Below, piece by piece: positions 5,074-40,612 of a DNA stretch of 56,558 bases. Position 1 is the first letter of the stretch, and every line of letters starts with the position of its first letter. The translations under genes were made by a program, and so were the position numbers. The DNA is from a virus: positions 1 through 56,558 of the IMG/VR virus record IMGVR_UViG_3300045988_053446; one strand, written 5' to 3'. Below the pieces are notes generated by a model, which was given only the letters and a program-made list of their open reading frames with translations, searched no databases and was not told the DNA's origin.

Positions 5074-5089
5074 AATATTTTCCCTTTCT

Positions 5090-5155
5090 GGTCTGCCATC
5101 ATCAGAGCCGCGGCGACCGTCCCGCGGCTGACGCTCCGGTGTGGAGCGTTTCGAC
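5090..5155 (-). ncRNA. hammerhead-like self-cleaving ribozyme candidate HH-A (type II topology)
   Basis: GUC-GAA-ACGCUCC/GGAGCGU-C^-AGCCGCGG/CCGCGGCU-CUGAUGA. Loop I GGUC is complementary to tail GACC. The 10.1/11.1 pair is not canonical. Confidence 0.5.
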
Positions 5156-5496
5156 TAAAATTTACAAGGCTTTTCATAGCGGATGACCGCTACCGTCTCG
5201 CCCGTGCTTGCAAGTGTTCCCCAGCCGTTCCACACAGGACCATTCAAGCCCAATAACTTAGGCTGGTTATATAGTTCTTCTCTCTGGCTTTCTGCAAGTC
5301 TGCCGTTATTATAGCCATAAACAAGGCTTTCAAACTCTGCTGCTGTCTTGATTTCCATTGGTAAATCGTAAACGCATTTTGCGCCGCTTTCTAATGTTCC
5401 TATAATCATAATCTTGTACCGTTTCGCCGAATATGATATAATCGGCTTACCTTTCTTTTTGATTGGTGGCGGTTGTGTGTCTTGGCAGGATTGCAA
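5155..5496 (-). CDS. hypothetical protein; start uncertain (TTG at 5496 or ATG at 5409)
   Basis: ORF track. No clean RBS for either start. Confidence 0.5.
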   Translation of the reverse strand: MQSCQDTQPPPIKKKGKPIISYSAKRYKIMIIGTLESGAKCVYDLPMEIKTAAEFESLVYGYNNGRLAESQREELYNQPKLLGLNGPVWNGWGTLASTGETVAVIRYEKPCKF

Positions 5497-6839: not shown

Positions 6840-7499
6840 ATGGAGAAAGTACAGGAAACAGCAGAAACGCCCGAAGTATTTCAAAATGACATAGAACTGT
6901 ATTTATCGCAGTTCTGCGAAGAACACAACATTGAAGATATGACAAAAGAACCACAGAGCAGATGGAACGCCGCTCTGATGTATATAAATAAATATGTTTT
7001 TAGTGATAAAAGTATATTAAAATTAAATAAGAATATTAATAAAAATAATACTAATTGCATTATGGATAGTAATTTTTATATGTATGATTATGATAAATTA
7101 GAGTATATATTATATATATATTATTATTTATGTGCTGTATATGATAAAGAATGTAGTATAATGGGATATAGCTTATTAACTGGTATTAATTACGATACAT
7201 TAATGGATTGGGGAGCAGATGAAAGGAAACTAAGTACAAAAGGCTTCGATATCGTGCAAAAACTGCGCATTTTTCGTGAAGAGAGTCTATCAAATAAGCT
7301 CGCAACTGGCAAAAAAAATCCTGTCGGCATCCTTGCAATACTTAACAGACATTATGCTTGGAATCTTCCAGGCGTGAGCAGAGAAAGTGCCGCAAAGGTC
7401 ATTAAGACCGCGTCGGAGCTTCCACAATTGAGCCAAAACAATACACAATTAACAGATAACCAGCAGATAAACGCTATAAACAATTCAGACACAATTTAA
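6840..7499 (+). CDS. terS: terminase small subunit-like protein
   Basis: C-terminal pattern ...ATGKKNPVGILAILNRHYAWN... is typical of Firmicutes phage small terminases. ATG at 6840 with GGGGGA RBS. Confidence 0.5.
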   Translation: MEKVQETAETPEVFQNDIELYLSQFCEEHNIEDMTKEPQSRWNAALMYINKYVFSDKSILKLNKNINKNNTNCIMDSNFYMYDYDKLEYILYIYYYLCAVYDKECSIMGYSLLTGINYDTLMDWGADERKLSTKGFDIVQKLRIFREESLSNKLATGKKNPVGILAILNRHYAWNLPGVSRESAAKVIKTASELPQLSQNNTQLTDNQQINAINNSDTI

Positions 7500-8601: not shown

Positions 8602-8673
8602 TGCCCCTTAGCCAAGTGGTCAAGGCACAGGATTTTGATTCCTGTATCGTGGGTTCAAATCCCACAGGGGTAG
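8602..8673 (+). tRNA. tRNA-Gln (anticodon UUG)
   Basis: Hand-folded cloverleaf. Acceptor TGCCCCT/AGGGGTA with U1-A72. Anticodon stem CAGGA/TCCTG with loop TTTTGAT. T-arm GTGGG-TTCAAAT-CCCAC. Confidence 0.85.
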
Positions 8674-9096: not shown

Positions 9097-9168
9097 CGGA
9101 TAGTAGTTCAGTTGGGAGTAACGCTTGATTTATTCAAGTAGTCACAGGTTCAAGTCCTGTCTATCCGA
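9097..9168 (+). tRNA. tRNA-like gene whose best 7-nt anticodon loop ATTTATT gives anticodon UUA (ochre-suppressor type); D-stem irregular
   Basis: Perfect acceptor CGGATAG/CTATCCG. T-arm ACAGG-TTCAAGT-CCTGT. D-arm GTTC-AGTTGGGA-G(T)AAC. Anticodon arm CTTG-ATTTATT-CAAG. Confidence 0.55.
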
Positions 9169-9170
9169 TT

Positions 9171-9231
9171 ACAACAAACTAGCTTGACGAAGCGAAAAGC
9201 ACAAGCCTTAGTGCCTGTTTGTTGTTTTGTT
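9171..9231 (+). terminator. terminator-like long hairpin after the tRNA cluster
   Basis: ACAACAAAC...GTTTGTTGT with inner GCTTG/CAAGC, followed by TTTGTT. Confidence 0.5.
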
Positions 9232-9267
9232 AATAAGGCAGTTATCAGAAAGGCAGGTAATAATATT

Positions 9268-38655: not shown

Positions 38656-38775
38656 ATGAGTAATGAGGAATACAGGCGAATAATAATAGAAACAGTCAAT
38701 AGCTGTAATAATAAAAGATTTTTAAAGTTTTTATATGAATTAATTATATCATTCAAAAAGAAATGGGGCATTTAA
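38656..38775 (+). CDS. micro-ORF (39 aa), paralogue of 31310..31417
   Basis: AGGGGAG RBS. MSNEEYRRIIIETVNSCNNKRFLKFLYELIISFKKKWGI. Confidence 0.45.
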   Translation: MSNEEYRRIIIETVNSCNNKRFLKFLYELIISFKKKWGI

Positions 38776-38789
38776 TGCCCCTCTTTCTC
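38765..38789. terminator. bidirectional terminator hairpin shared by the convergent micro-ORF and repressor
   Basis: GGGGCAT-tta-ATGCCCC with T-rich runs on both strands. Confidence 0.6.
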
Positions 38790-39131
38790 ATACCAATAGG
38801 CTATATTGTCAAATATAGTTTGTTGATGTTCTTTATTAAGTTTCATTAACTTCTTAACACTATCCAACATTTTCTTATCTGACATTAAGTCGGGAATAAT
38901 ATCAGCATTATCAGTAGATAAATTATCTTCCCATCCCATTAAATACGATGGAGAAATATCAAGAATCTGTGCAGCAATCTGAATTTTATCACTTGGTATG
39001 TTTGTTACGGCATTGTTTTCATACTTATATAATGTCTGTTTAGAAACGCCCATCTTTTTAGCTAACTCTACTTGTGACATATTGTTAAGCTCTCTTTGTT
39101 CCTTAATCCTATCTCCAACAGTTTTAATCAT
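38772..39131 (-). CDS. CI-like XRE-family repressor
   Basis: HTH ...MSQVELAKKMGVSKQTLYKYEN... Divergent from the cro-like gene. Confidence 0.85.
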   Translation of the reverse strand: MIKTVGDRIKEQRELNNMSQVELAKKMGVSKQTLYKYENNAVTNIPSDKIQIAAQILDISPSYLMGWEDNLSTDNADIIPDLMSDKKMLDSVKKLMKLNKEHQQTIFDNIAYWYEKEGH

Positions 39132-39190: not shown

Positions 39191-39202
39191 GAAAAAAATA
39201 AC

Positions 39203-39274: not shown

Positions 39275-39484
39275 ATGGTTGATACAAATAAGCTTCGTGG
39301 GATTATTGCTGAAAACGGAAAAACGCAGACAGAAGTTGCACAAATGATAGGTGTAACACCCAAGACTTTCTATTTACGAATGCACAAGGGAGTTTTTGGC
39401 AGTAACGAAATTCAGATTATGATTGATAATTTGAATATTGAAAATCCTATGGAGATTTTTTTTGCAAAGAAAGTAACTTCATAA
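39275..39484 (+). CDS. Cro-like HTH regulator
   Basis: ...KTQTEVAQMIGVTPKTFYLRM... AAAGGAG RBS. Confidence 0.7.
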   Translation: MVDTNKLRGIIAENGKTQTEVAQMIGVTPKTFYLRMHKGVFGSNEIQIMIDNLNIENPMEIFFAKKVTS

Positions 39485-39488
39485 GTTA
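39472..39488. promoter_or_regulatory. distal copy of the operator palindrome GTAACTT-cat-AAGTTAC
   Basis: Perfect 7-3-7 palindrome overlapping the cro-like stop codon, 237 bp from the first copy. Confidence 0.55.
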
Positions 39489-39519
39489 CCACAAGACACA
39501 TAAGAATTAGAATTTTTGA

Positions 39520-39546
39520 TATTGATACAATAGAGAAGTGATGGTA
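39520..39546. repeat. left arm of a 27-bp perfect inverted repeat (ATTGATACAATAGAGAAGTGATGGTAG)
   Basis: Exact reverse complement of 39793..39819. Contains the extended -10-like TGATACAAT facing inward. Confidence 0.9.
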
Positions 39547-39631
39547 GCGGTAAATAGTTACAAACTTTTATTCAAACATCATTAGTTCTTTTTGGCAGGG
39601 ATAGCGCCCTGTTCGTATCAAGTGTGAATTA

Positions 39632-39769
39632 CCTACCGATTGGCAGTTTTGTCTTTAGCATATTTATTTAATTCTATTGATATAGAAATAAGAGCGTACA
39701 GGGTGCAGAAGTCTACGTCACAGAAGTATGAGCCGACCACTGATACGCACAATGCTATGACAGTATCCA
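39632..39769 (-). CDS. 45-aa hydrophobic peptide with a charged C-terminal tail (type I toxin-like)
   Basis: AAGGAG lies 5 nt upstream of the ATG. MDTVIALCVSVVGSYFCDVDFCTLYALISISIELNKYAKDKTANR. Below the ORF-track cutoff. Confidence 0.45.
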
Positions 39770-39792
39770 TACAATCTCCTTTTTGGAAAATG

Positions 39793-39819
39793 TCTACCAT
39801 CACTTCTCTATTGTATCAA
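39793..39819. repeat. right arm of the 27-bp perfect inverted repeat
   Basis: Exact reverse complement of 39520..39546. TGATACAAT on the minus strand faces inward. Confidence 0.9.
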
Positions 39820-39919
39820 TAAACATAAAGTTCTACAAGCTACAACAGATAGAAATGAGCAAAATTGCTCAAATGTGCCTTAAAAGGAATATATCACACA
39901 TTGTTAGAAAGGAATGTTT

Positions 39920-40612
39920 ATGGAGTTACAGATTTTTAACAATTCAGAGTTTGGAGAAATCCGAACCATTACTAAAGATGATGAACCTATGTTTTGCTTA
40001 GCTGATGTATGCAAGGCATTAGAAATATCAAATGTAGGAAATGTTAAGCAGAGGTTATCTGAAAAGGGTATCCATACTGCGGATACCCTTACAAATGGCG
40101 GAATGCAGAAGATGATATTTATTAGCGAGGCTAATCTTTACAAGACAATCTTTCAGAGCCGTAAAGAAAGTGCAGAGAGATTTACAGATTGGGTTACAGG
40201 AGAGGTGCTTCCGTCAATCAGAAAGACAGGCAGTTATCAGAAAAAGTTATCCCCACAGGAAATGATGAGAATACAGCTAGGTATGTTAGATGATGTGTCA
40301 GACAGAGTGTCTAAGTTAGAAAATACAATGAACATTGATTACGGACAGCAGAAAGTACTTAATGACTTAGTATCAGCAAGGGTAATAAAAATCTTAGGCG
40401 GTAAAAACAGTAACGCTTATAAGGAAATAAGCAGAAAAGTATTTGCAGAAATTAATCACGATTACAAGGATTATTTCAATGTTAATTCAAGAGCCAACAC
40501 ACCAAGGCTTAAGAATGAACAGGCAGTTGAATATATTAAAAACTGGATGCCAAGCACTAACACAATGATGTTAATAAAAGATTGCAATGCACAGATAAAC
40601 TTAGAGAGCTGA
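39920..40612 (+). CDS. ant: Bro-N domain antirepressor
   Basis: ...FNNSEFGEIRTITKDDEPMFCLADVCKALEISN... and ...FTDWVTGEVLPSIRKTG. Confidence 0.8.
   Translation: MELQIFNNSEFGEIRTITKDDEPMFCLADVCKALEISNVGNVKQRLSEKGIHTADTLTNGGMQKMIFISEANLYKTIFQSRKESAERFTDWVTGEVLPSIRKTGSYQKKLSPQEMMRIQLGMLDDVSDRVSKLENTMNIDYGQQKVLNDLVSARVIKILGGKNSNAYKEISRKVFAEINHDYKDYFNVNSRANTPRLKNEQAVEYIKNWMPSTNTMMLIKDCNAQINLES

Follow-up and report, generated by a model that had tools for sequence, protein, structure and literature searches.

A 28-nt perfect inverted repeat in a virus genome from IMG/VR (record IMGVR_UViG_3300045988_053446, positions 1 to 56,558; this whole 56,558-nt stretch is hereafter called the window) encloses the gene for a 45-amino-acid (aa) hydrophobic peptide with a basic tail, between a cro-like gene and an antirepressor gene. 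On balance, we favor the view that this module represents a new type I toxin-antitoxin (TA)-like family. An initial annotation of the window had offered several interpretations of the repeat, and the type I TA reading is the one best supported by comparative evidence, which adds promoter boxes, a hairpin with a U-rich tail, a covarying stem over the Shine-Dalgarno (SD) sequence and AUG, and selection on the peptide accompanied by losses. From the anatomy, conservation and covariation of the module we infer transcription from both arms, control by RNA-RNA pairing and toxicity of the peptide.

The inverted repeat and the gene it encloses

The arms of the repeat (TATTGATACAATAGAGAAGTGATGGTAG at 39520-39547 and its exact reverse complement at 39794-39821) are separated by a 246-nt interior. 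Two copies of the arm are present in the window when up to three mismatches are allowed, against a chance expectation of 0.00 (100 dinucleotide-preserving shuffles, none found). The repeat had been described as 27 bp and perfect; it is perfect, but it is 28 nt long, and the 27-mer lies at 39521-39547 and 39794-39820, one position from where it had been placed. Each arm carries the extended -10 box TGATACAAT (TG at 39523-24 and TACAAT at 39526-31 on the + strand, mirrored at 39818-39810 on the - strand), and both boxes are directed towards the interior, as had been annotated. The 45-aa sequence of the minus-strand open reading frame (ORF) was likewise correct, although its coordinates are 39770 to 39633 and not 39769 to 39632. 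Its SD sequence, GGAG at 39779-39776, stands 5 nt ahead of the ATG, and the hydrophobic product ends in a K/R-rich tail (LNKYAKDKTANR) with a net charge of +3, both in agreement with the initial annotation. Coordinates of all features are collected in Table 1.

Two other reading frames were considered and rejected. A 60-aa ORF on the + strand (39640-39822, with a MAVLSLAYL start that recurs in modules L072 and L071) has no SD and begins with TTG, and its frame contains stops in L077 and L080. Its conserved start merely mirrors a block over the tail of the peptide gene that is conserved as nucleotides, and its third codon positions fall on those of the peptide ORF. An in-frame upstream GTG start at 39803 would give a 56-aa ORF, but the frame is lost in relatives whose leader is 1 nt shorter.

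A cassette shared by temperate phages of Lachnospiraceae

Homologs of the peptide fall into 32 clusters by profile search and 86 clusters at 50% identity by exhaustive HMMER search. Most are 40-65 aa long, and longer gene calls match over only about 45-50 residues. The DNA was read around 14 divergent members (L070-L072 and L076-L085), which together with the window make 15 modules. These 14 further modules come from temperate phages of Lachnospiraceae or Roseburia, and the identity of their peptides goes as low as ~35-65%. In every divergent member, a temperate-phage early operon (repressor/cro ... SSB ... AAA ATPase) surrounds the small ORF, no other gene there shares its strand, and a comparable inverted repeat of 24-28 nt flanks it; the module is antisense to the early operon in all cases. 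The neighboring genes vary and include cro and ant, ant and SLT, T5orf172 and SLT, HTH and HTH_39, ORF6N, and AntA. Among the compact modules (the window, L072 and L081), similarity extends from the -35 box to the outer end of the distal arm and no further. Given these differing neighbors and the bounded similarity, the module appears to be an autonomous cassette of ~320 bp that assorts independently of its neighbors, with the repeat apparently marking both of its ends. A tie to the antirepressor is, by this comparison, evidently not general, and the earlier proposal that the module in the window is linked specifically to the antirepressor and to the decision between lysis and lysogeny is weakened, since the module adjoins quite different genes in other phages.

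An extra outer layer was seen in 11 of the 15 modules (L070, L071, L076-L080 and L082-L085) and is absent from the window, L072 and L081. Just past the proximal -35 box it includes a hairpin, AAAAAAUCCAACUACC...GAUAGUUGG, that resembles an intrinsic terminator for transcription in the direction of the operon. Outside the distal arm the motif recurs a third time (TTCTCAACTATC, often after TTTCGAC repeats). Examples are found at 9905-9935 in L077 and at 6895-6925 and 7320-7335 in L071. The upstream motif copy could pair with the 5' half of the terminator as an antiterminator across the whole module.

Closer relatives share the site as well as the element. The repeat, whose presence in other genomes the initial annotation had left to be checked, was found in 69 IMG/VR viral contigs matching an exact 23-mer of the arm. 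Two arms stand 101-277 nt apart (start to start) in 68 of these, and one stored stretch holds a single arm. When oriented by the interior, all 68 two-arm contigs have the same flanks (...GAATTTTTGA, the element, AAYATAAAGTTCT...), and the site and orientation are therefore fixed. In many relatives the left flank (repressor, cro) is unrelated to that of the window. On the right, where the flank encodes the N-terminus of ant, identity to the window is 74-99%, and the element thus lies at a mosaic junction. The proximal (right) arm is invariant in the 68 relatives with both arms readable. The left arm differs from it at two positions in most relatives (TGATGCAAT...AGAAAAG), and it appears that the lineage of the window made its left arm identical to the right.

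The interior of the element was lost more than once among these relatives. Elements of 300-305 nt have an intact ORF in 38 of 38 distinct sequences, two of them with a frameshift in the tail, which is still basic. The size classes of 159 and 161 nt represent two distinct junctions, each of which excises the SD and ORF almost exactly and keeps the arms and the left interior, and the 129-nt class lacks the left interior together with the 3' half of the ORF. Both arms are retained even where the interior is deleted. A recombinant was seen in L074 (1205-1416), which keeps the proximal arm and the first ~30 codons; its C-terminus, 3' region and distal arm are swapped for unrelated sequence beside a DUF739 cro-like gene. 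The element had no blastn match in 50,697 GenBank phage records, and a degenerate 23-mer pattern of the arm was found in two contigs, one from a Lachnospiraceae metagenome-assembled genome (MAG) and one from a Roseburia MAG, among 185,579 species represented by one genome each. A search of viral contigs for an empty site (flanks joined with 0-30 nt between them) found none, as its single match, L075, is unrelated sequence.

Predicted promoters and likeness of the arms

The arms share conserved blocks across modules, consisting of TGnTAnAAT, 6-9 A/T-rich nt, (G)TGATGG and then three covarying bases (TAG, CGA or CGG). All 15 modules have TGnTAnAAT with (G)TGATGG upstream of the ORF, on the proximal side. 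Of the 14 modules in the first scan, 13 have it on the distal side as well, and L084 has TACGAT there. Nearly all proximal arms are accompanied by a TTGnnn hexamer at 17-nt spacing (TTGTCG, TTGCCA in L072, TTGTAA, TTGTCT), and a distal -35 box (TTGAAA, TTGAAG or TTGATA at 17 nt) is found in about half of the modules. With a start ~7 nt past the -10 box, both predicted RNAs open with GUGAUGGNNN.

The two arms of a module also evolve in concert. Arm identity is 85% within a module relative to 77% between modules, a value that was reached in none of 5000 permutations. For example, both arms of L081 read GTGGTGAC and both arms of L083 read TGGTATAATGGATAT, and GT is missing from both arms in L080 and in L082.

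Predicted translation locks in the peptide mRNA

Folds of the mRNA were computed in silico from the predicted start. The minimum-energy fold of the leader is identical in all 12 modules of the MDVII subfamily: GUGAUGGYR at the 5' end is base-paired to codons 2-5 and ACAU to the region of the start codon, and the SD lies in a UUCC-GAAA-GGAG hairpin. Across the alignment, the 11 pairs of the outer helix are 100% paired in 13 distinct sequences and include two compensatory double changes (C-G to U-A and G-C to A-U), with four pairs varying on one side only, and control partners slid by 1-3 columns were 31-59% paired. The inner SD helix is 81% paired across modules.

The same 5' end has a stronger predicted partner at the other end of the mRNA. 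Pairing of the 5' 11 nt with the complement of the distal arm has energies of -16.6 to -21.2 kcal/mol, compared with -4.3 to -12.5 kcal/mol for pairing with codons 2-5; in the window the values are -16.6 for the 5'-3' pairing and -9.3 kcal/mol for the cis stem. The full-length minimum-energy fold uses the 5'-3' pairing in 14 of 14 modules folded, with the mRNA reading through the distal arm. An RNA stem joining the transcript ends had been among the initial interpretations, and it is upheld for the inner ~10 nt of the arms only. SD sequestration, a 5' stem-loop and a 5'-3' interaction are T1TAdb determinants for type I toxin mRNAs (PMC8594479), and the predicted mRNA has all three in silico.

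The whole 302-nt stretch also folds with its arms paired on either strand (-94.5 and -100.6 kcal/mol, z -6.6 and -9.5). This fold was discarded as evidence for the peptide mRNA, because the promoter of that mRNA sits within the arm.

The peptide is conserved when intact and often lost

The maximum KD19 hydropathy of the peptide is 1.78 in the window and 1.7-1.95 in most members. An AlphaFold2 (AF2) model made with the family alignment consists of a helix at residues 2-17, a break at 18-20 and a helix at 21-43, with a mean pLDDT of 82. G13, D20 and DKT in the tail are invariant, and F21 is nearly so. Pairwise pN/pS is 0.28 within the window family and the common substitutions are conservative, and by these measures the peptide is under purifying selection. 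At least two independent precise deletions of the ORF were found, along with a partial deletion, the replacement of the C-terminus in L074, a premature stop in L070, short forms in P0025, and frameshifted tails. A gene that is conserved when intact and often destroyed, with the RNA scaffolding surviving around it, fits a toxin gene.

The antisense side and the tail block

The predicted antisense RNA would be ~85-115 nt long and complementary to the 3' untranslated region (UTR) of the mRNA and to the lock element. Its predicted end is a hairpin that is found at the same place, between the distal arm and the ORF stop, in every module, with differing stems (CGGATT/AATCCG, ACGGAA/TTCCGT, CCAAAG/CTTTGG, TCCAGAT/ATCTGGA and ATGGATT/AATCCAT in other modules). 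It is followed on the antisense strand by UUUAUC, UUCAUC or UUCGUAUC. The closing pair of this hairpin is G-C, G-U or A-U within the window family, a variation that stays paired on the + strand only. Rfam searches, at gathering and at permissive thresholds, returned no relevant family, the best match being RsaE with 21 bits relative to a gathering score of 79.

A block over the last 6-8 codons and the stop (CUACCGNNUGGCAGUUUUAUCUUUAG on the + strand) is conserved as nucleotides across modules. It is read in two frames among members (KTAxR and KLPxGR) and persists past the premature stop in L070, which suggests that, beyond any role as a peptide motif, it is an element of the RNA or DNA. It may possibly be a second terminator.

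Proposed mechanism

In the mechanism we propose, the proximal arm, with a TTGnnn -35 box outside it, would fire the mRNA of the 45-aa hydrophobic, basic-tailed peptide from a sigma-A-type extended -10 promoter. The nascent mRNA would close upon itself, with its 5' end (GUGAUGGUA) paired to codons 2-5 and the SD held in a UUUCC/GGAGA hairpin, and translation would be blocked. Once the mRNA reached the distal arm, the 5' end would swap to the stronger 10-bp pairing with the complement of that arm, forming a 5'-3' lock. The distal arm would in turn fire an antisense RNA that opens with the same 10 nt and ends at the U-tailed hairpin just 3' of the ORF. This RNA would pair with the whole 3' UTR, compete for the lock element and displace the 5' end back to the start region, and the mRNA-antisense duplex would be an RNase III substrate, marked for degradation; the action of SR4 on bsrG offers a comparison for this step (PMC3834814). 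Loss of the prophage or decay of the short-lived RNA would permit translation of the peptide, and release of translation on such loss has been shown for Clostridioides difficile prophage type I TAs (PMC7699646). The likely role would be addiction, exclusion or a selfish cassette inside the early operon of temperate Lachnospiraceae phages.

A more tentative proposal, which we hold as possible and not as probable, is that a mirror-image duplication of the toxin promoter and leader gives the toxin mRNA and the antisense RNA the same first ~10 nt, and that the antitoxin mimics the 5' end of the toxin mRNA. The shared ~10-nt sequence would have alternative partners, namely codons 2-5, the toxin's own 3' end, and the same two sites for the antisense RNA in trans. 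Selection holding the arms identical for such mimicry would explain their concerted evolution. Mirrored promoter-plus-leader arms that give both RNAs one 5' end are not described in the type I TA literature searched.

Contrary evidence and alternative explanations

Several observations weigh against a type I TA module. Midway along its hydrophobic stretch the peptide has a kink and an invariant Asp, its KD19 hydropathy is marginal (1.2-1.3) in two members, and it has no match in Pfam (E<=1), NCBIfam, PHROGs, PADLOC or PDB (E<=10). The distal arm has no -35 box in the window, L072 and L081, and in L072, L081 and most close relatives its -10 box has lost the key A at position 2 and reads TGCAAT; the antisense promoter may thus be weak, although the antitoxin usually has the stronger promoter of the two. 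In the window the hairpin is followed by a poor U-tract (UUCGUAUC), and the hairpin could equally be the terminator of an upstream operon transcript. The arms are also alike upstream of the predicted transcription start site (TSS), which end-pairing of the mRNA leaves unexplained; it would be accounted for by gene conversion between the arms or by a read-through operon RNA in which each arm is complete.

The same anatomy could belong to a 'moron' without any TA function, that is, a harmless small membrane protein expressed in lysogeny for superinfection exclusion, lysis timing or host modulation, with its expression tuned via mRNA structure and antisense or read-through transcription. The gene has its own promoter and is antisense to the lytic operon, as morons are. 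Purifying selection on the peptide and the weakness of the predicted antisense promoter in several lineages are also in keeping with a moron, and invariant G13, D20 and F21 together with the helix-kink-helix model suggest a specific fold and not a generic pore-former. We nevertheless consider a moron unlikely: the ORF was lost repeatedly, independently and precisely while the RNA elements stayed, the double lock on the mRNA is typical of toxin mRNAs, and the module assorts as a minimal unit among unrelated neighbors. Alternatively, the arms may act in the rightward early-operon transcript (PR-cro-...-ant) as a 28-bp stem with a 246-nt loop, either an RNase III site or an attenuator or insulator, that controls downstream genes such as ant, with the peptide incidental. 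The arm-paired fold of the 302-nt stretch on either strand agrees with such a stem, as do the likeness of the arms beyond the predicted TSS, in sequence contained only in read-through RNA, the prediction of no + strand terminator from cro to the module, and the operon-direction terminator just outside the proximal arm in 11 of 15 modules. The outer half of the arm is, however, exactly the promoter box, with -35 boxes correctly spaced outside the repeat, and the middle of the arm is non-complementary in several modules (ATTTTT vs AAAAA in L076, an indel in L079). Nor is the module tied to ant, and the covarying stem that joins codons 2-5 to the 5' end would be unexplained. We regard this stem as decidedly improbable as the explanation of the module, although it and type I TA function can coexist.

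Two further interpretations had been raised on account of the repeat itself. Flipping of the 246-bp interior between the arms, as in an inverton, has the classic look of a perfect 28-bp inverted repeat with promoter-like boxes in its favor. The interior is inverted relative to the flanks in none of the close relatives (69 contigs, 68 with both arms) and in none of the 14 divergent modules, so that a single orientation is seen throughout. The immediate neighbors are a repressor, cro and an antirepressor and not a recombinase, and with the same promoter in both arms flipping would alter nothing at the ends. The case carries a caution for metagenomic scans, in that a perfect inverted repeat with promoters is not always an inverton. 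A miniature inverted-repeat transposable element (MITE)-like non-autonomous transposon would account for perfect terminal inverted repeats of 28 bp, for homology among the window, L072 and L081 that ends at or very near the arms, and for different sites in different phages. Against transposition, the element is single-copy in the window and in every contig seen, the degenerate arm pattern occurs in only two contigs among the species genomes, and the flanks (...TTTTGA and AACATA) show no target-site duplication. The outermost arm bases (TAT, GT, AC) change along with the promoter, a functional -35 box lies outside the repeat, and conserved sequence extends beyond both arms in 11 of 15 modules. 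The TA dinucleotide at the outer ends of the arms was considered as an IS630-type target duplication and discarded, as other modules carry GT or AC there. As the element occurs once per genome, in a single orientation and without target-site duplication, both interpretations are rejected, a MITE being highly improbable and the chance of an inverton close to negligible.

Comparison with known type I systems

No type I TA in Lachnospiraceae or Roseburia is described in the literature and libraries searched, and the module has no sequence or profile match to the named type I families (Fst, Hok, Ldr, TisB, Ibs, TxpA, BsrG and holin-like toxin; RatA, SR4, Sok and other Rfam RNAs). The par system of Enterococcus faecalis plasmid pAD1 (Fst, RNA I/RNA II) is alike in its convergent promoters, small hydrophobic toxin, repeats at the 5' ends and terminator between the genes. 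The par repeats are direct in the DNA and give complementary 5' ends, whereas those described here are inverted and would give identical RNA starts. No homology to Fst was found by Pfam search.

Closer in layout are two systems from prophage-like elements of Bacillus subtilis. In txpA/RatA, the genes are convergent, the antisense RNA is directed to the 3' part of the toxin mRNA, and the SD lies in a short helix. The same arrangement is found in bsrG/SR4, in which binding of the antitoxin at the 3' end alters the structure of the ribosome-binding site and triggers decay (PMC3834814). Both belong to other peptide and RNA families, their promoters and 5' ends are not described as mutual copies, and coupling between the 3' UTR and the start is here predicted to occur via the shared 10-nt 5' sequence.

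In the type I TAs of C. difficile prophages, the toxins are hydrophobic peptides of 50-53 aa with a lysine tail, and the antisense RNAs are convergent (PMC6563280, PMC7699646). CD0977.1-RCd11, CD0956.2-RCd10 and CD2517.1-RCd8 resemble the present module in their Clostridia-class host, prophage location, convergent antisense RNA and proposed role in retention of mobile elements, and their toxins are alike in having a hydrophobic N-terminus and a lysine-rich charged C-terminus (PMC6563280, PMC7699646). There is no sequence similarity to these systems (Pfam, NCBIfam), identical inverted promoter/leader arms are not mentioned in their published descriptions, and the antisense RNA predicted here covers mainly the 3' UTR and not a long coding stretch. 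A 5' hairpin that forms co-transcriptionally, followed by a 5'-3' long-distance lock, is also known from hok/Sok of plasmid R1 and aapA1/IsoA1 of Helicobacter pylori (PMC9841398, PMC5416894, PMC6733600). Those systems are Gram-negative, their antitoxin overlaps the 5' region of the mRNA and their activation needs 3' processing, whereas the antisense RNA predicted here overlaps the 3' lock element.

Genomic neighborhood in the window

The element lies in a lysogeny-switch region with divergent consensus promoters (Table 1). An operator-like repeat (family D1), an 18-nt palindrome, is present in three copies, at 39197, 39234 and 39472. The third copy may mark the end of the peptide mRNA as a weak leftward terminator. 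In the TP901-1-type CI/MOR switch, the downstream operator OD likewise overlaps a stop codon. Another palindrome, TGAGCAAAATTGCTCA at 39856-39871 (two 6-nt arms with a 4-nt center), lies between the proximal arm and the start of the antirepressor gene and scored as terminator-like on the - strand only; it could be an insulator of the peptide promoter or an operator for ant.

Table 1 Features of the module and its neighborhood in the window. Promoters, transcripts and pairings are predictions.
Feature	Position	Strand	Remarks
HTH_3 repressor	38772-39131	-	
cro-like gene	39275-39484	+	small HTH protein, 69 aa
Third operator-like palindrome	39472-39489		overlaps cro end/stop codon; followed by UUUCUUU on the - strand
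ORF-distal arm	39520-39547	+	putative second extended -10 promoter and first ~10 nt of predicted antisense RNA; complement on the - strand is the predicted 3' partner of the mRNA 5' end
Predicted antisense (antitoxin-like) RNA	39538-39620, possibly to ~39656	+	putative TSS near 39538, to hairpin tail; predicted from promoter and hairpin
Hairpin CAGGG-ATAGCG-CCCTG with tail	39596-39619	+	hairpin 39596-39611, then UUCGUAUC
Tail block CTACCGATTGGCAGTTTTGTCTTT	39633-39656		conserved as nucleotides; small hairpin with stop codon on mRNA; U-run after weak stem on + strand
Peptide gene	39633-39770	-	45 aa, MDTVIALCVSVVGSYFCDVDFCTLYALISISIELNKYAKDKTANR; hydrophobic helix, kink, second helix, basic tail; stop codon included
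Codons 2-5 (UACUGUCAU)	39757-39765	-	3' strand of stem with mRNA 5' end (39803-39795), closing over SD and AUG
5' UTR of peptide mRNA	39771-39803	-	SD GGAG (39779-39776) in small hairpin with anti-SD UUUCC (39789-39785)
ORF-proximal arm	39794-39821	-	putative peptide mRNA promoter (TG 39818-39817, -10 TACAAT 39815-39810) and first ~10 transcribed nt GUGAUGGUAG (39803-39794); putative TSS near 39803
-35 box TTGTAG of peptide promoter	39833-39838	-	17 nt upstream of -10, outside the inverted repeat
Bro-N/ORF6C antirepressor (ant)	39914-40612	+	

Other RNA features were noted elsewhere in the window. A bidirectional terminator-like site, GGGGCATTTAATGCCCC at 38765-38781 with T-runs on both strands, separates the lysis genes from the 3' end of the repressor gene. 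A full-length type II hammerhead ribozyme was matched by Rfam in this phage genome at 5087-5156 on the - strand (58.1 bits, gathering score 37). Two tRNA genes are located at 8602-8673 and 9097-9168 on the + strand, and an int-alpA RNA match (9172-9238 on the + strand, 58.9 bits, gathering score 35.8) directly follows the second of them.

Significance

The comparative set of 15 modules and 86 peptide clusters pins the predicted promoters, the covarying translation lock and the 5'-3' lock. At ~320 bp, the module would be a compact test bed for the coupling of mRNA folding to antisense control by a mirrored promoter and leader. It is also a candidate counter-selection or stabilization cassette for genetically recalcitrant gut anaerobes, for which a C. 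difficile toxin provides a precedent (PMC7699646). If the type I TA reading is true, the module would represent a type I TA family in phages of Lachnospiraceae and Roseburia, hosts that are dominant butyrate producers of the human gut.

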